Positions 1-52,408 of a stretch of DNA of 64,000 nucleotides are shown here, piece after piece. The stretch covers positions 1 through 64,000 of the forward strand of contig JAJPHT010000020.1 in NCBI GenBank assembly GCA_021325135.1, in the 5' to 3' direction. The translations under genes and the position numbers were made by a program. The stretch is from Pseudomonadota bacterium (GTDB taxonomy: Archaea; Thermoplasmatota; SW-10-69-26; JACQPN01; JAJPHT01). Numbering within the stretch: position 1 is the first letter of the stretch; each line of letters starts with the position of its first letter. The notes under the pieces are model-generated. The model was not told where the DNA came from and searched no databases. It worked only from the letters and a program-made list of their open reading frames with translations.

Positions 1-1113
1 ACCTTCGAGTTCGCCTTCGTGATGGACAACCTCAAGGAGGAGCGCGAGCGCGGCGTCACCATCGACATCGCGCACAAGAAGTTCACCACGGACAAGTACT
101 ACTTCACCATCATCGACGCGCCCGGCCACCGCGACTTCGTCAAGAACATGATCACGGGCGCCTCGCAGGCCGACGCGGCCGTGCTCGTCGTCTCCGCCGT
201 CTCGGGCATCGAGGCCCAGACGAAGGAGCACGTGTTCCTGAGCCGCACCCTCGGCGTCGAGCAGCTCATCGTCTACGTCAACAAGATCGACGCGACGAGC
301 TACGACCAGAAGAAGTTCGAGGCGCTCAAGGAAGAGATCACGAAGCTGATCCGCATGGTCGGCTACAAGCCCGACAACGTGCCCATCGTCGCGGGCTCGT
401 CCTACAAGCAGGACAACATCACGAAGCCCAGCCCCAACATGCCCTGGTACAAGGGCCCCACGCTCCTCGACGCGCTCAACAACCTCAAGGAGCCCCAGAA
501 GCCCACGAACCTCCCCCTCCGCCTCCCGGTGCAGGACGTCTACTCCATCACCGGCATCGGCACGGTCCCCGTGGGCCGCGTCGAGACGGGCATCCTGAAG
601 GTCAACGACAACCTCGTCTTCCAGCCCTCCGGCGTGTCCGGTGAGTGCAAGACCATCGAGATGCACCACGAGACGCACCCCCAGGCGCTGCCCGGCGACA
701 ACGTCGGCTTCAACGTCCGCGGCATCGGCAAGAAGGACATCCGCCGCGGCGACGTGGCCGGCCACCCCAACAACCCGCCCAAGGTCGCCAAGACCTTCGT
801 CGCGCAGGTCGCCGTCCTCCAGCACCCCTCCGTGATCGCGGCCGGCTACACGCCCGTGTTCCACATCCACACGGCGCAGCTCGCCTGCACCTTCGAGGAG
901 CTGCAGAAGAAGCTCGACCCCAAGACGGGCCAGGTCAAGGAGGAGAACCCCCAGTTCCTCAAGACCGGGGACATCGCCATCGTGAAGATCCGCCCCAGCC
1001 GCCCCCTGTCCATCGAGCGCAGCAAGGACATCCCCCACATGTCCCGCTTCGCCATCCGCGACATGGGTACGACCGTCGCGGCCGGCCTCTGCCTGGACAT
1101 CGAGGAGCGCTAA
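1..1113 (+). CDS. tuf: Translation elongation factor EF-1alpha (5'-truncated by window edge)
   Basis: [33 protein letters not shown] and C-terminal RFAIRDMG motifs of archaeal EF-1alpha; reading frame is open from base 1. Confidence 0.98.
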
Positions 1114-1123
1114 ACACTTCGCC

Positions 1124-1165
1124 GGGGCGCGCCGACGCGCGCCCCCTTTTCTTTTCATTTTGTTT
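1124..1165 (+). terminator. Putative tuf terminator
   Basis: GGGGCGCG/CGCGCCCC stem followed by a long T-rich tract just after the TAA stop. Confidence 0.7.
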
Positions 1166-1204
1166 CGCTGAGCGCGAGCGCTGTCCCGCGTCGCCAGCGC
1201 GGCC

Positions 1205-1245
1205 GCCAGGCCGCGCGAGGCCGAACCCGCAGGTTCGGCCGAATC
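1205..1245. repeat. Short hairpin element, family A (copy 1)
   Basis: GGCCGAACC-CGCA-GGTTCGGCC-GAATC; its reverse complement matches 33872-33912. Confidence 0.8.
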
Positions 1246-1312
1246 CGCGACATGGGCACGACCGTGGCCGCGGGCCTCTGCCTGGATATCGAGGAGCGCT
1301 AAGCGCGCTCTA

Positions 1313-1350
1313 CGCGGCCTTGTGATATCACGAGGCCGCGCGTCTTTTTC
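1313..1350 (+). terminator. Terminator-like hairpin after the duplicated tuf tail
   Basis: CGCGGCCTTGTGATATCACGAGGCCGCG palindrome followed by CTTTTT; centred on TGATATCA. Confidence 0.55.
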
Positions 1351-2273
1351 TCATTCTCGACGTCCGAGCGCGAGCCCTCCCGCGTCGCTGCCCTTCCTTG
1401 GGCGGGGGCGCGCGGGCGCAGGAGCCACGCGAGGGCCTTGCCCGACGGCCCCGCGGGAGCGGCGGGCTCAAAGGATCTCGGGCGGGTGGTCGAGGAGCTC
1501 CGTCGCCGTCCGCTTCGAGGCCTTGACCAGAAGATATCTCGATCCGGGGATGGGGCCGTCTCCTCGAAGGGCGGCAGGCCCGCGTCGTTGAAGACGCGGA
1601 GGGCGAGCCGGGGGCTGGTCCGGTGGATCACGGGGCCGTGGGCCACCGCCGGAGCGAGGGGGGCTTTGCTGGAGCGCGGCACGGAACGTCGCATGGCCCA
1701 CGGCGGTCACCGTGGCGTGACGTTGACGGGGGCCTTCGTCTCGTGGAAGACCACAAGCGCCACCTGCCGCGGCTGGAGGGCAGCACACCTGGAAAGCGGC
1801 AGCATCATCATCGCGCACGCCGCGAAGGCCAGCCATCGCACCGGCTCCGACGGGGTGTCGGCGCATCACCGTGGCGGACCCGGGCGCGGGCCGCAACCCC
1901 TCGTTCGTGCGCCCGCGCTCCGCCTCTCCTTCGCGGCCCTGCCCACGGGCATCCCCTTGCACCAGAGGCTGGAGGTCGAGGGCGACCTCCTTGGCGCGCA
2001 CCACGCGGCGCAGGGGAAGGCCCCGCGCCTGCAGTTCGGCCGCTTCCGCGCTGGCCGGATCGTCCGGTCCTGAAGGGTGAGGGAACAGGCCGGACGGTCC
2101 GCCGCGACGGGAAGGCAGGTACGTTCGCGAACCCGGATATGGCGCGCCGGGGGGAAGTATGCGACGATGACGCGCGGAGGGCCGTGGCGCGCGGCGGTGC
2201 GCGGCGGTTCAGCGCGGTGATCCCTGGTGAAGGGACCAGAAGCTTGACGTGCGAAGCGTGCCGGGGCAGTCGC

Positions 2274-2837
2274 GTGCAACGCCTCACGATCTCGCTGGAC
2301 GACGATCTGGCCGATGCGCTGGATGCGCTCCAGGAGAACGGAGGGGACTCCAAGGCGAACCTCATCCGGCGCGCGCTGCGCATCTACGTGAAGCGTCAGC
2401 GGGGGCGCGACCGGCCGACGGACCACGACCTGCGGACGTGGACCGAGCTGCTGGCCAACCGCGAGCACGTGATCCTGGACGTCGCGCACGTGCGCCTCTT
2501 CTTCGAGCAGCTGGCGGGCGCGCCCGCGTCGTTCTGGGCGGGGCTGCGCGAGATCGGCGCGGAGCACGGGCGGCAGTACCGCGACAAGGGGATGGCGGAC
2601 GTGCTGGACATGCTGCGCGTCATGGAGTCGGCCAACTGGTTCTACCTGGCGCCGGAGTCCGAGAGGAGCTGGGCGCTCATCCTCACGGAGCCCAGCGCGA
2701 AGCCGTTCGTGAAGGCGTTCCTGGAGGGGTTCGTGAGCCAGCTGGACGCGCACGCGGAGGTCATCGAGGAGCGCACGAAGCTGCGCGTCCGCGCCTCCGC
2801 CGTCCCGAGAAGCGGGCTGGGCCGCGCGCGGGCGTGA
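2274..2837 (+). CDS. CopG-family ribbon-helix-helix transcriptional regulator with C-terminal domain
   Basis: N-terminal RLTISLDDDLADALDAL...SKANLIRRALRIY is a typical RHH; GTG start inferred. Confidence 0.8.
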   Translation: MQRLTISLDDDLADALDALQENGGDSKANLIRRALRIYVKRQRGRDRPTDHDLRTWTELLANREHVILDVAHVRLFFEQLAGAPASFWAGLREIGAEHGRQYRDKGMADVLDMLRVMESANWFYLAPESERSWALILTEPSAKPFVKAFLEGFVSQLDAHAEVIEERTKLRVRASAVPRSGLGRARA

Positions 2838-2843
2838 GGCGCC

Positions 2844-3053
2844 TCAAGGCAGGATGCTGCGGCACTCGGCGGGCGCGCCGAGCTTGACGCCCGCGCAGCC
2901 AGGCCCGTAGACGACGTTCACGTCGCCCACGTTGCAGTGCTCGTAGAGGTCGTCGTCCAGGTCGCACGACGCGGCGGGCGGGTCGCCCGCGTGGACGAGG
3001 GGGGCGAAGGTCGCAAGGAGGAGCACGAGAAGGGCGGCGGCTGCGGCGCGCAT
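2844..3053 (-). CDS. Small secreted 4-Cys protein
   Basis: Signal peptide MRAAAAALLVLLLATFAPLVHA; acidic mature region with 4 Cys; GC3-rich codons. Confidence 0.65.
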   Translation of the reverse strand: MRAAAAALLVLLLATFAPLVHAGDPPAASCDLDDDLYEHCNVGDVNVVYGPGCAGVKLGAPAECRSILP

Positions 3054-3162
3054 CGGCGCGCCATGGGCGCAGGGTGGCTTGGACTTCGCTCCGCTTCATG
3101 CGAAGCGCTCCGCGCGCGAAGCGCTCAAGACGCCCCTGCGTCATGCGGGCGCGAGGCTGTCC

Positions 3163-3384
3163 ATGAAGCTCCTTCTTGCGATCCTCGTCTGCGCCGTCGC
3201 GCTCCCCCTCGTCGCCTCCCCGGCGTCCGCCACGCCGCCGGTCTGCCTGGAGAAGGGCGCCACCGTCCTCACGACCTCGGTGGACGTCCGCCTCACCTGC
3301 GGGCCGCGCGTCGCCGTGGTCCAGTGCCCGCCCGTGGGCGAGGGCCCGTGCCTCTTCTGGAGCACGGACAACCTCCTCGCCTAG
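3163..3384 (+). CDS. Small secreted 4-Cys protein
   Basis: Signal peptide MKLLLAILVCAVALPLVASPASA; mature region with 4 Cys. Confidence 0.7.
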   Translation: MKLLLAILVCAVALPLVASPASATPPVCLEKGATVLTTSVDVRLTCGPRVAVVQCPPVGEGPCLFWSTDNLLA

Positions 3385-3508
3385 GCGGGTCGGCCTTCCG
3401 CGCGGCCCCGGGCCCGGCTGCCCGCCTGGCCGTGCTGCGCGATGGCTAGGCGAGGCTTCACGGCTGCCAGAGCGATGGCTTATCAGGGAGAAGCCCCAAC
3501 CGGGGGCG

Positions 3509-26033: not shown

Positions 26034-26097
26034 CGTTTTGGTCGTCTGCTGGAACGGCTCTTTCACGTCAGGGGGGCGAGCCCCCCTGAAACCCCCC
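26006..26097. repeat. REPIN-like inverted doublet of G5-C-GNA-G-C5 hairpins (family B)
   Basis: GGGGGGTTCGGGGGGCGCAGCCCCCTGACGT ... ACGTCAGGGGGGCGAGCCCCCCTGAAACCCCCC, between convergent genes. Confidence 0.75.
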
Positions 26098-26134
26098 ATT
26101 TTGCGCGCGCTGCGGCGCGCGCGACGAACCGATC

Positions 26135-33146: not shown

Positions 33147-33839
33147 ATGAGCCGCAAGTGGCTGCGCGAGCGCAGCAAGGACTTCTGGTACAAGCTCGCC
33201 AAGAAGGAGGGGTGGCGCACCCGGGCGAGCTTCAAGCTCATGCAGCTGGACGAGAAGTTCGAGCTTCTCTTCGAGGGCGCGCGGGTGGTGGACCTGGGCG
33301 CAGCCCCTGGCGGCTGGAGCCAGGTCGCGGTGGAGCTGGTCGGCCCCGAGGGGAAGGTCGTGGGCGTGGACCTCGACCGCATCGAGCCCATGGAGGGCGT
33401 CACCTTCCTGCGCGGCGACATGACGGACCCCGAGACGGTCTCCCGCGTCATGGAGGCCTGCGGCGGCGTGGCCGACGTGGTCATCAGCGACATGAGCCCC
33501 AACATCAGCGGCGCCTACGCCACGGACCACGCGCGCAGCATCCACCTCTGCGAGATGGCCCTGGAGTTCGCCGGCAAGGTGCTCGTGCGCGACGGCGCGT
33601 TCGTCTGCAAGGTCTTCGAAGGCGACATGTTCCACGACCTCCTGGGCAAGGTGCGCGCCCAGTTCGCGGACGTGAAGGTCGCGAACCCCGCCGCGTCGCG
33701 CTCCGCCAGCAGCGAGGTCTACGTCGTCGCGCAGGGCTTCCGCGGCCCCGGCCGGTACCCGCCCCTGGCGAAGCCCAAGGAGTGGCAGGAAGGGGACGAG
33801 CTTCCCCCCAGCCGCAAGGAGCGGAGGAAGCCGGAGTGA
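33147..33839 (+). CDS. rlmE: 23S rRNA 2'-O-methyltransferase RlmE/FtsJ
   Basis: R.RASFKL, VVDLGAAPGGWSQV, SDMSPNISG, KVFEG, SR..SSEVY. Confidence 0.96.
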   Translation: MSRKWLRERSKDFWYKLAKKEGWRTRASFKLMQLDEKFELLFEGARVVDLGAAPGGWSQVAVELVGPEGKVVGVDLDRIEPMEGVTFLRGDMTDPETVSRVMEACGGVADVVISDMSPNISGAYATDHARSIHLCEMALEFAGKVLVRDGAFVCKVFEGDMFHDLLGKVRAQFADVKVANPAASRSASSEVYVVAQGFRGPGRYPPLAKPKEWQEGDELPPSRKERRKPE

Positions 33840-34735
33840 GGACCCTCCGCGTCCGCGTCGGCCATTCTCCCGATTCGGCCGAAGCTGCGGCCTCGGCCTC
33901 TCGTGAGCATGGCCTCCGCGTCCGCGTCGGCCATTCTCCCGATCCGGACGACGCCTTCATGGTGTGGGCCCTGCACGCCGGCCTCGTCCGCGAGGATGAT
34001 ATCACCATCGAGCTTGTCCCCAAGGACATCGAGTCCCTGAACCAGATGGCGCTGCGCGGCGAGGGGCCCGAGGCCAGCGCGCTCTCCATGGCGACGTTCG
34101 CCCGCGTCGCGGACACCCACTGGCTCCTGCCCCACGGCGCGTCGTTCGGCGACGGGTACGGGCCCATCGTGGTCGCGCGGGAGGACGTGGACCTGCGGCG
34201 CGTCGCTATCGCGGCGCCCGGCGAGGGCACCACCGCCTACGCGACGCTGAGGATGGCGCTTCCCGGCGCGCGCTGCGTGCAGATGCCCTTCGACGAGATT
34301 CTCCCCGCCGTGCAGCAGGGCAAGGCCGAGGCGGGCCTGCTCATCCACGAGGGGCAGATCACCTGGCAGCGCGAGGGCGTGCGCAGGCTCCTGGACCTGG
34401 GCGTGTGGTGGAAGGGCGAGACGGGCCTCCCCCTGCCGCTGGGCATCAACGCGCTGCGCAAGGACCTGGGCCCTACGCTGGGCGCGCGCGTGAACCGGCT
34501 CCTCGCGCGCAGCGTCGAGGCGGGGCTCGCGCATCGCGCGGAGGCCCTGGAGTACGCACGCGGCTTCGGGCGTGGCCTCCCCACGCAGGACGCCGACACG
34601 TTCGTCTCCATGTACGTCAACGCGCTGACGCGCGACATGGGCGAGCGCGGCCGCGCCGCGGTGGCCGAATGGCTGCGCCGGGCCGCGGACGCGGGGCTCG
34701 TGCCTCGCGGGGCGCGGGTCGAGATGGCTCCTTGA
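33836..34735 (+). CDS. mqnD: 1,4-dihydroxy-6-naphthoate synthase with a 23-aa in-frame insertion/duplication
   Basis: GHSPDPDDAFM, DIE.LN, G.GYGPIVV, GLLIHEG, PLPLG, MYVN; GTG overlaps the rlmE stop. Confidence 0.92.
   Translation: MRTLRVRVGHSPDSAEAAASASREHGLRVRVGHSPDPDDAFMVWALHAGLVREDDITIELVPKDIESLNQMALRGEGPEASALSMATFARVADTHWLLPHGASFGDGYGPIVVAREDVDLRRVAIAAPGEGTTAYATLRMALPGARCVQMPFDEILPAVQQGKAEAGLLIHEGQITWQREGVRRLLDLGVWWKGETGLPLPLGINALRKDLGPTLGARVNRLLARSVEAGLAHRAEALEYARGFGRGLPTQDADTFVSMYVNALTRDMGERGRAAVAEWLRRAADAGLVPRGARVEMAP
33844..33943. repeat. 31-bp direct repeat flanking family A hairpin element (copy 2)
   Basis: CCTCCGCGTCCGCGTCGGCCATTCTCCCGAT at 33844-33874 and 33913-33943; 38-bp spacer begins TCGGCCGAAGCTGCGGCCTCGGCC. 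Confidence 0.92.
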
Positions 34736-50384: not shown

Positions 50385-51295
50385 GGCGCGACCTCCAGGG
50401 GCGTCAGCGGCGGGACTTTGGGCATCTCCCCCACCTTGCGCGCCAGGTCGAAGTAGCGCGCGAGGCCCGCGAGCTTGGGCGCGTCGAGGTCGTAGTTGAG
50501 GTCGCGGAAGTAGCGCTCCATGAACGCCCGCGAGAGGAAGAGCTTGCGGCGCGCGTGCTCCACGATGGGCGCGCGGTTGGCGCGCCCCCACGCCTTGCTG
50601 GCCAGGAGCGCGTGGTGCACGGCGCGCAACGCCTCGGGGTCGCGCTGGGCGAAGTCGCGGCGGGCGGCCCACACGGCGAACACCATGGGCGTGCCGGTCC
50701 AGCGCGTCCACTCGTCGGCGAGGTCGAGGCGCCCCAGGTTGGGGTACGCCAGCGAGGCGCGCAGCGCGGCGTCGCCGATGAGGAGCACGCCGTCGTAGGC
50801 GTGGCCGATCTCCTCCAGGTCCGCGTCGCCCTGCACGATCGCGGCGTCGAGGCCGAGGCGCTCGCGCATGAGGATCTTCAGCAGCACGACGCTGGTGGCG
50901 CTCTCTCCGGTCACGCACACCTTCCCGCCGCGCAGCGATTCGACGCCGTTGCGGAAGAAGAGGGACACGCTGTGGACGAACCCCGTGCTGTTGATGGAGA
51001 GGCCCGGCAGAAGCTCCAGCGAGTCCGCATGCTGCGCGTAGGCGAAGCTGGACACGGGGCTCACCTGGAGGGCACCCGAGGCCAGCTGCGCGTTGAGCGT
51101 CGTGGGCGGCGCCTTCACGAGCTCCGCGCCCGGGGGCAGCGGCACCGCGCCCGTCTCCAGGCCGTAGTAGACGGGGAGCGAGTTGAGGTAGTCGATATAC
51201 CCGAGTCTTACGGGGGCGGCTCGCGAGCCGCCCCCGTAAGACTCGGGTGCGCGACGAACGCTGCGTTCGTCGCTGTAGCCCACGCGGACCTTCAT
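50381..51295 (-). CDS. mqnA: Chorismate dehydratase with a 26-aa palindromic in-frame insertion
   Basis: GYIDYLNSLP, P..LN, V.SV.L, SATSV.LL, LLIGD.AL, DL...W...TG.P.VFAVW. Confidence 0.92.
   Translation of the reverse strand: MKVRVGYSDERSVRRAPESYGGGSRAAPVRLGYIDYLNSLPVYYGLETGAVPLPPGAELVKAPPTTLNAQLASGALQVSPVSSFAYAQHADSLELLPGLSINSTGFVHSVSLFFRNGVESLRGGKVCVTGESATSVVLLKILMRERLGLDAAIVQGDADLEEIGHAYDGVLLIGDAALRASLAYPNLGRLDLADEWTRWTGTPMVFAVWAARRDFAQRDPEALRAVHHALLASKAWGRANRAPIVEHARRKLFLSRAFMERYFRDLNYDLDAPKLAGLARYFDLARKVGEMPKVPPLTPLEVAP
51196..51273. repeat. 78-bp double-palindrome insertion in mqnA
   Basis: Perfect 50-bp palindrome 51199-51248 and an 11-bp-arm hairpin 51251-51273; deleting 51196-51273 restores GGC TAC ATC GAC (GYID). 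Confidence 0.92.
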
Positions 51296-52408
51296 TCAGG
51301 CCACCGCCAGGGGCGTCAGCTCGCGGGGGATGGGGTGATAGCTTCCGAAGGCGTACTCGGGGACGAAGCCCGCGCTGGTGATGAGGGGCGTGAGGTCCTC
51401 CTTCTTGACGAAGGCCCACGTCTTGCCTCCGGCCGCCTGGAGGATGCGCTCCTCGAAGGCCGCGCCGCCGATGTCGTCGACGCCGAAGTGCAGCGCGACC
51501 TGCGCCATGGGCTTGCCCACGGTGACCCACGGGAGCTTGATGTGGGAGACGTTGTCCAGGTAGAGCCGCGCGATGCTCACCATGCGCAGCGTGTCGAACG
51601 CGCTGGGGCCCATGGCGCCGGTCTTGGCGTGGAGCTCCGTGTTCTCGGGGTTCCACGCGAGGCCCAGGAAGGCGTTGAAGCCGCGGGTGCGGTCCTGCAT
51701 CTCGCGGACGCGGCGCAGGTGGTCGACGCGCTCCTCCGCCGTCTCCACGTGGCCGTAGAGGATGCTCACGTTGGTGGGGATGCCCAGCGCGTGCGCCTCC
51801 TCGTGGACCTGGAGGAAGCGGTCGCCCGCGATCTTGGTGGCCATCATGCGCTTGCGCGCCTCGGGATGGAACACCTCCGCGCCGCCCCCGGGAATGCTAT
51901 CAAGGCCAGCGGCACGGAGACGCCGCAGCGTCTCCGTGATCGACAGCTTCTCGCGCTTGGCGAGGAAGTCGACCTCGACGCCGGTCATGCCCTGGATGTG
52001 GGCCTGGGGGCTGACCTTCTTGAGGCGCCGGAACATCTCCTCGAAGTAGGCGAGGTCGCACTCAGGGGTGAGGCCGCCCACGACGTGCCACTCGTTGACG
52101 CCCACCTTGGCGGCGGCCTTGGCTTTCTCCTCGATCTCGTCCAGGGTCATGAGGTAGGCCTTCTCGCTGCCGCTCTTGGCGAAGAAGGCGCAGAACCCGC
52201 AGTCCGCGGCGCAGATGTTGGTGTGGTTGACGTTGAGGTCCGTGCGGGTGTAGACCTTGTTGCCGTGGCGCTTCGCGCGCTCGCGGTGCGCCAGCCTGCC
52301 CAGGGCGACGACGTCCTGCACGGCGAAGAGGGCCAGGGCGTCCTCGTCGGTGATCCGCTCGCTCCTGGCGAGCTTGCGCTCGACCTCGTCCAGGATGGGC
52401 ATTCTCAT
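51296..52408 (-). CDS. mqnE: Aminofutalosine synthase (radical SAM)
   Basis: N.TNIC...CGFCAF, E.HVVGG, PGGGAEVF, LYGHVET.EERVDH, IARLYLDN..HIK; operonic with mqnA and mqnC. Confidence 0.88.
   Translation of the reverse strand: MRMPILDEVERKLARSERITDEDALALFAVQDVVALGRLAHRERAKRHGNKVYTRTDLNVNHTNICAADCGFCAFFAKSGSEKAYLMTLDEIEEKAKAAAKVGVNEWHVVGGLTPECDLAYFEEMFRRLKKVSPQAHIQGMTGVEVDFLAKREKLSITETLRRLRAAGLDSIPGGGAEVFHPEARKRMMATKIAGDRFLQVHEEAHALGIPTNVSILYGHVETAEERVDHLRRVREMQDRTRGFNAFLGLAWNPENTELHAKTGAMGPSAFDTLRMVSIARLYLDNVSHIKLPWVTVGKPMAQVALHFGVDDIGGAAFEERILQAAGGKTWAFVKKEDLTPLITSAGFVPEYAFGSYHPIPRELTPLAVA

Follow-up and report, generated by a model that had tools for sequence, protein, structure and literature searches.

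Protein-less hairpin cassettes that duplicate gene ends in a family of archaea

How does a conserved enzyme gene come to carry its own beginning twice, with a hairpin between the two copies? The question is raised by mqnD in the window analysed here, the first 64 kb (64,000 nt) of contig C36 of a metagenome-assembled archaeon (genome G000; 3.77 Mb, 72% G+C, assembly completeness 94%). The mqnD reading frame has 299 codons, belongs to the MqnA/MqnD family (Pfam VitK2_biosynth, E = 6e-64) and starts at a GTG (33836) that overlaps the stop codon of rlmE (Table 1). Its product begins in the order MRTLRVRVGHSPD-SAEAAASASREHG-LRVRVGHSPD-PDDAF, and the DNA beneath holds an exact 31-bp repeat, its two copies separated in frame by a 38-bp spacer (33875-33912) that contains the hairpin GGCCGAAGC-TGCG-GCCTCGGCC. 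A sequence-only reading of the window had described this in-frame insert and its flanking duplication, and the sequence facts given there were all correct when reread from the window.

Table 1 Coordinates of the features discussed, in the window unless a contig or locus is named
Feature	Position	Strand	Basis or remark
mqnD (1,4-dihydroxy-6-naphthoate synthase family) ORF	33836..34735	+	ORF reading, Pfam, protein match
Copy A of the 31-bp repeat (orphan)	33844..33874	+	retains start context; terminal GAT abuts core
Core element TC-GGCCGAAGC-TGCG-GCCTCGGCC-TCTC	33875..33902	+	9-bp stem, one A.C mismatch
Imperfect inverted copy (12/14) of the repeat's last bases	33901..33914	+	extends the hairpin together with copy A
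Copy B of the repeat, contiguous with the mqnD remainder; functional first strand	33913..33943	+	
69 bp absent from isogenic contig L083	33875..33943	+	placement ambiguous within the repeat
Second window core GGCCGAACC-TGCG-GGTTCGGCC, behind tuf	1215..1242	-	
tuf 3' end (last 20 codons) and terminator region, attached to the gene	1054..1200	+	allele type of sisters G002 and G003
Orphan copy of the tuf 3' end, plus a terminator region belonging to it	1243..1390	+	allele type of sister G004
Related insert of 78 nt with two palindromes, in frame in mqnA (mqnD paralogue)	51197..51274	-	VRVGY repeated as VRLGY
TTCGCTTCGC sites	G000:C15:198153, C19:50144, C6:35603, C20:1455, C23:12898; L044, L048		

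The 69-bp addition had been said to keep the frame and to regenerate the first strand of the protein, and the domain boundaries agree: VitK2_biosynth covers residues 30-284, and residue 30 falls in the second repeat copy, so the first copy and the insert make up an N-terminal extension. The price that mqnD appears to pay for the insert is thus an extension of 23 aa. In the public protein collection the gene is called from an internal Met (P0002, 258 aa), 41 codons short (window 33836-33958), because of the insert. In the nearest relative (G002, contig C79), an extra gene of ~690 nt, apparently for a membrane protein, lies between rlmE and mqnD, which overlap in G000.

A protein search returned a 276-aa protein identical to this MqnD except that it lacks the 23 residues. 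It is encoded on a 423-kb contig of another metagenome assembly (L083; ENA ERZ27279688, k141_2735500), which matches the window at 100% over 3823 nt to the right and at 3045/3047 nt to the left, with exactly 69 bp missing, and whose junction reads ...CATTCTCCCGAT|CCGGACGACGCC. The contig name suggests assembly at k=141, and as this exceeds the 31-bp repeat, collapse of the repeat is an unlikely cause of the empty site. In three genomes of the same genus (G001, G002 and G004), GHSPDPDDAF is likewise single-copy and the mqnD site is empty; sister taxa thus have empty sites of the kind that the sequence-only reading had proposed to look for in an MqnD alignment. Since L083 lacks exactly the 69 bp, the cassette is polymorphic inside one strain-level population. 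Either it was gained very recently, or it was gained earlier and has recently been excised precisely through the repeat; the second course would also account for the stem having one mismatch and the inverted copy two. An assembly artefact was considered and rejected: the architecture recurs in several independent assemblies, and an assembler cannot invent the inserted sequence.

Scanning the window with the 24-nt core gave a sole other match, on the minus strand behind tuf (1219-1242; three mismatches; chance expectation 0.00). The alignment of the mqnD insert with the reverse complement of a tuf element, claimed earlier, is sound, as is the observation that a host GAT precedes the element at both loci. 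Genome-wide copies were sought with blastn-short and exact hairpin scans and then with a covariance model, which gave matches at E<=1e-4 in six of the nine genomes of this archaeal family. Strong matches numbered seven in G000, 21 in G002, six in G008, two each in G004 and G005 and one in G007; among 32 more distant genomes of the same order, class and phylum there were none. The skeleton C-GGCCG-N2-5-CTGCGG-N2-5-CGGCC-T is invariant in 25 copies from five genomes. By their flanks these cores form two types, TTC...TCTC and (C)AC...T(G/A)TC, and are nearly identical base for base between unrelated loci and genomes. No donor with the mqnD core variant (GAAGC) occurs elsewhere in the G000 assembly. 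The many copies, the empty sites in relatives and the isogenic empty allele bear out the earlier proposal of a mini mobile element. We conclude that the element family is real, active and unusual, and that its cassettes are gained and lost.

Between the mqnD and tuf cores, the C-G/G-C swap in the stem and the A.C mismatch (G.T on the other strand) are real, as had been reported, and the inference drawn from them, a strand-specific hairpin, is weak, because only two or three such mismatches occur family-wide and one transition is as likely to produce the one outcome as the other. Compensatory changes in the stem need not imply selection on a single strand; arm-to-arm copying yields the same pattern.

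A separate REP-like repeat, which shares the TGCG loop, is far more abundant in G000. It is bipartite and is present in the window (26070-26125) and at dozens of G000 sites, its first half reading AAACCCCCCATTTT-GCGCGCGC/GGCCGCGC-TGCG-...-GACGAC and its adjoining second half CAAAATGGGGGGTT-TCAGGGGGG-CTCG-CCCCCCTGA-CGTGAAG; by far the commonest perfect-stem hairpins in the genome have CTCG or TGCG loops. A perfect TGCG hairpin with an 11-bp stem (51913-51938, minus strand) was not counted as a member of the core family, being conserved coding sequence without a flank duplication. It lies inside a radical-SAM gene beside mqnA (..LSITETLRRLRAAGL..) and may be native sequence.

Direct repeats of the flank, with the left copy ending within 4 nt of the core, accompany 16 of 31 core copies, as against 0.63% of 3000 random positions, and seven of the 31 have an adjacent inverted flank copy, as against 0.23%. 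The duplicated segment, X, ranges from 9 to about 150 nt, so that a fixed left end with a flank duplication of variable length, as first noted for two loci, is a property of the family. When a cassette is read with its TGCG loop uppermost, orphan X is usually followed by the core, then by a partial reverse complement of X and finally by X joined to the gene body; in some cassettes a second small hairpin lies between the inverted copy and the attached X. This direct-inverted-direct layout, in which a partial inverted copy stands between the two repeats, is frequent, and the picture of a simple flank duplication must be amended: the repeats are real, but they are copies of gene ends, and in older pairs the two copies come from different lineages. 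A cassette, then, consists of a conserved hairpin core next to a truncated orphan of the gene end, in most cases a partial inverted copy of that end, and a complete end joined to the gene. Because this second end stays joined, the gene survives.

Cassettes are sited at gene starts, gene ends and the 3' halves of tRNAs, and leave one intact and one orphan end. X mostly ends in CGAT, CGAC or CGA, and the strict GAT junction claimed earlier relaxes to approximately YCGAY, with other sequences at some sites. The gene body lies nearly always to the right of the core. Genes targeted at the 5' end (mqnD, two HAD phosphatases, the transketolase C-terminal subunit and vapC) are in sense, and those targeted at the 3' end (tuf, many G002 genes and three tRNAs) in antisense. 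This polarity tracks the gene end, whichever way the gene is transcribed, and speaks for a process acting on DNA. In the tRNA and small-gene cases, orphan pieces flank the core on both sides, and at operon junctions older cassettes read as short bridging ORFs. Several 3' cassettes carry a second conserved module, TTCGCTTCGC, after the new stop codon, forming the opposite tip. Written as TTCGCTTCGC(TCA), this second tip of the 3'-end cassettes corresponds, in complement, to a stop codon with a GCGAAGC mini-hairpin after it.

Tandem units occur at vapC, at contig ends, and in G008 (contig C62), and would fit a history in which the intact copy was hit more than once. The vapC unit, 62 nt long, combines an AA-loop variant of the core, a Shine-Dalgarno sequence and the first seven codons of a vapC-like PIN gene. 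It is repeated at two contig ends (G000:C47:23612-23716 and C27:1-130), where it probably broke the assembly.

How the two gene ends of a cassette relate to each other was assessed at the nucleotide level. In the youngest copies the repeats are exact (mqnD 31/31, L055 21/21, C15 17/17). Across 11 loci with ungapped pairs, with reading frames chosen by GC3, all of the differences between orphan and attached copies are synonymous (23/23). Both ends of the older cassettes have therefore evolved as coding sequence, and are best regarded as alleles, not as decaying duplicates.

The window itself opens within one such case, tuf, the archaeal EF-1alpha gene. Its duplicated 3' end (1054-1113 versus 1243-1302) is 55/60 identical, and the likeness becomes patchy in the untranslated part up to ~1390; the duplication of ~140 bp noted earlier thus stands for the 60 coding nucleotides and only in patches beyond them. 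All five differences within the 60 nt are synonymous and at third codon positions. At three adjacent differing sites the attached copy agrees with G002 and G003 and the orphan with G004, to which the orphan end is 57/60 identical, and the terminator regions of the two copies resemble those of different species. The match of the two tuf ends to alleles of different sister species indicates that ends have been exchanged between lineages. A second, independent tuf cassette was observed in the sister genome G001 (L067, contig C89), where the final 27 nt, stop codon included, recur 64 nt further down, with a minimal tip, GCC-CGCA-GGC, and a full-length inverted copy bearing G-to-A changes in between. 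In the window, ~2 kb (1400-3400) separate the orphan tuf end from a gene that lies ~0.65-1.5 kb behind tuf in G003; a ribbon-helix-helix-like ORF lies in this interval, which may be a small insertion.

At mqnA, where the site of the insert is empty in sister genomes, the upstream copy equals the orthologue in G002, and the functional copy, which lies downstream, has been recoded in rare codons; heavy recoding of the junction-adjacent copy is seen both here and in one HAD phosphatase gene. Comparing G002 cassettes with empty orthologous sites in G000, we found in the adenosylhomocysteinase (AhcY) of G002 a whole replacement C-terminus beside the native orphan: the functional end reads IDALTAAQRAYLAGWQEGT, the native orphan IDTLTKVQKDYMAGWQEGT and the empty site of G000 IDQLSKVQKDYMAGWQEGT, each up to its stop. 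Which copy looks native differs by locus (mqnA, tuf, AhcY). Together, the synonymous divergence, the tuf alleles and the AhcY replacement indicate that older cassettes passed between lineages with the gene end attached.

By our estimate, and with a little over an even chance of being right, what mqnD has received is a young copy of a hairpin cassette that is specific to this archaeal family, encodes no protein, arises through break repair with template switching and spreads by recombination. A cassette would be born when a break or stalled 3' end is repaired at a YCGAY site. The 3' end would copy the core from an existing cassette by way of a few bases of microhomology, the new palindrome would snap back and copy part of the flank in reverse, and synthesis would then switch to the intact sister chromosome further out and copy the flank again, yielding a duplication of variable length. 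Only events that rebuild the whole gene end would survive selection. Once established, cassettes could be handed on among related lineages through homologous recombination in the gene end, which would place the recipient's and the donor's ends side by side.

We infer this path from its products alone. The target resembles the left arm of the core (GAT|CCGGACGACGC versus GAT|TCGGCCGAAGC), a candidate microhomology; the bases after the mqnD core agree with a snap-back copy of the flank at 10/12 positions (12/14 with the shared TC; hand alignment), and the fold predicted for the RNA has this extended palindrome too; and the duplications stop at different outer positions, as they should if the final template switch has no set landing point. 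The imperfect inverted copy in a seemingly fresh mqnD cassette is left unexplained by such a path, since faithful snap-back synthesis would leave no mismatch; its two mismatches may reflect an older cassette (with a recently excised empty allele), error-prone synthesis or a donor tail. Nor is the recurring second module, TTCGCTTCGC, easily explained by undirected template switching. The lack of a GAAGC donor in the G000 assembly and the change, from locus to locus, in which copy looks native also count against this path. A possible but doubtful alternative is a new class of gene-less selfish element in which two conserved hairpin modules enclose the inverted gene-end copy as an address, serving as a guide for a host-encoded nuclease or as a homology arm. 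Were this so, a cassette would home to the same gene in related archaea, replacing its end each time, with occasional retargeting to similar genes, such as a move from mqnD to its paralogue mqnA or from one of the two HAD phosphatase genes to the other.

The divergence between ends would also be expected from nuclease-driven homing of gene-end replacement cassettes, in which a site-specific endonuclease encoded elsewhere cuts the intact gene end and repair from the cassette allele installs the donor end and displaces the native one. This unlikely reading draws on coding-type divergence between orphan and functional ends, tuf ends matching different species, the replaced AhcY C-terminus, the recoded junction-adjacent copies at mqnA and one HAD phosphatase gene, the choice of conserved motifs in essential genes and tRNAs as targets, the tandem arrays and the precedent of the WHO mechanism (PMC7282813). 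Against it, the cassettes are 30-100 nt long without an ORF and hence without a homing endonuclease of their own, and no LAGLIDADG_3 gene was found in G000. The functional copies at mqnD and tuf also keep the orphan's site, and so have no immunity, and a two-lineage pattern equally results, with no drive at all, from ordinary recombination that uses short homology in the orphan copy. Cassettes thus share with WHO and mobile-ORF elements a replacement end beside the displaced old one, with divergence of coding type, and lack the encoded nuclease. An enzyme making widely staggered cuts (an HUH enzyme of an undetected family, a tyrosine recombinase or some other) would nick one strand at YCGAY and the other at a variable distance, join the hairpin and leave a true but variable target-site duplication after fill-in. 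We rate it as rather unlikely, although the left junction is fixed with a YCGAY preference, repeats are exact in the youngest copies, the core resembles a recombinase site with two 8-9-bp arms around CTGCGG, and G000 has three tyrosine recombinase genes. The HUH or reverse-transcription engine proposed in the sequence-only reading found no support in the 94%-complete G000: Y1 HUH transposase/RAYT (PF01797) gave no match there and matched 6/14 control genomes, reverse transcriptase (PF00078) gave none and matched control genomes, and a TnpB gene was not found; the Y2 HUH transposase of IS91-type rolling-circle elements (PF04986) was without a match in G000, but the controls were equally silent. 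Staggered cutting would, moreover, leave unaccounted for the inverted copy, the second conserved tip, the two-sided orphan pieces of tRNAs and small genes, and the purely synonymous divergence.

Established classes were rejected on similar grounds. IS200/IS605 palindromic elements and REP/RAYT would fit the YCGAY preference, yet no Y1 HUH gene was found in G000 and 16/31 copies carry duplications of 9-150 nt; a target-primed retroelement would need a reverse transcriptase, and none was found there. A DDE-transposon MITE, whose poor fit had already been pointed out, would have terminal inverted repeats and a short duplication of fixed length, and does not match a single central palindrome with duplications of 9 to ~150 nt. 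Off-target CRISPR spacer integration, which a 31-bp repeat and 38-bp spacer might bring to mind, does not accord with the same core serving as 'spacer' at many loci between repeats of 9-150 nt. Tandem inversion duplication and ODIRA require a parental junction palindrome, and the isogenic empty site lacks the core. It is for a related reason that we consider it very unlikely that the copies are not mobile at all and reflect independent local replication errors (short-range template switching, tandem inversion duplications) at GC-rich hairpin sites. The direct-inverted-direct order is a known product of snap-back template switching (PMC4689423, PMC10766183), and template switching can create perfect stems (PMC8794818), but the 28-nt core is absent from the empty allele and is common to unrelated loci and genomes nearly base for base. 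There is scarcely any likelihood that the insert is a functional device in RNA that is removed or skipped, be it a regulatory hairpin, an archaeal bulge-helix-bulge intron or a site where ribosomes take off and land again (GAT to GAT). In favour of this, the reading frame is kept and the two junctions have the same GAT codon, older operon-junction cassettes read as bridging ORFs, and the predicted RNA fold is a strong, extended palindrome (z = -4.3). Its minimum-energy form, however, is a continuous imperfect hairpin without a bulge-helix-bulge motif, an Rfam search gave no match, the element points one way along the transcript in 5' cases and the other way in 3' cases with its polarity towards the gene body kept, and the isogenic strain dispenses with the element.

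The cassette would be a mobile element of ~30 nt that encodes no protein and enters essential genes (tuf, tRNAs, ahcY, mqnA, mqnD) non-lethally, the host gene being spared since its end is restored with every insertion. The presence of an allele with the insert and one without it in a single strain provides a concrete, datable event for work on the mechanism, and gene ends are seen to pass between related archaeal lineages. The cassettes also account for odd N-terminal extensions, upstream mini-ORFs and duplicated tails in metagenome-assembled archaea, which annotation pipelines mis-call. If a dedicated nuclease or guide mechanism lies behind them, it would represent a new integration chemistry.

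Several known systems resemble the cassettes in part. C-terminal gene duplications are made by fungal mitochondrial mobile-ORF elements, for example in Allomyces atp6. Gene-end replacement is described for the WHO homing elements of Torulaspora and Lachancea (PMC7282813). As in the cassettes, the end of a conserved gene is replaced, the displaced old end lies adjacent, differences are allele-like and arrays arise by repeated integration; WHO and mobile-ORF elements, however, are kilobase-sized with their own endonuclease, whereas cassettes are non-coding, measure 30-100 nt and act at 5' ends and tRNAs as well as at 3' ends. REPs and the in-frame Rickettsia palindromic elements are likewise GC-rich palindromes of 20-40 nt, present in many copies with species-specific subfamilies and an unpaired tag at one end, without a protein of their own and in some cases within ORFs near the N- or C-terminus. 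CGTC-tagged REPs have no dedicated transposase (Di Nocera et al. 2013, PMC3733652), and flank duplication is not reported in that survey, from which the word 'duplication' is absent. REPs, described for bacteria, show neither an inverted flank copy nor gene-end replacement, whereas cassettes are low in copy number (about 7-21 in a genome) and keep to gene termini.

The inverted triplications formed by ODIRA or snap-back synthesis (PMC4689423, PMC10766183) share the direct-inverted-direct order, palindromic junctions and variable length, but they and tandem inversion duplications use pre-existing junction palindromes at kilobase scale, whereas cassettes import a conserved palindrome and span tens of bases. 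Mitochondrial mobile GC clusters, small inverted repeats and double-hairpin elements are similarly tiny, protein-less hairpins with signs of mobility, at times found in coding regions and with a mechanism given as unknown (reviewed in PMC3787672). These elements, unlike the cassettes, are organellar, and systematic gene-end duplication is not described for them. Our literature search returned no description, in archaea or bacteria, of a gene-less hairpin of ~30 nt with variable gene-end duplication, and none of the systems compared here unites these two features. New in this analysis are the isogenic empty allele and the count of 23/23 synonymous differences between the two gene ends.
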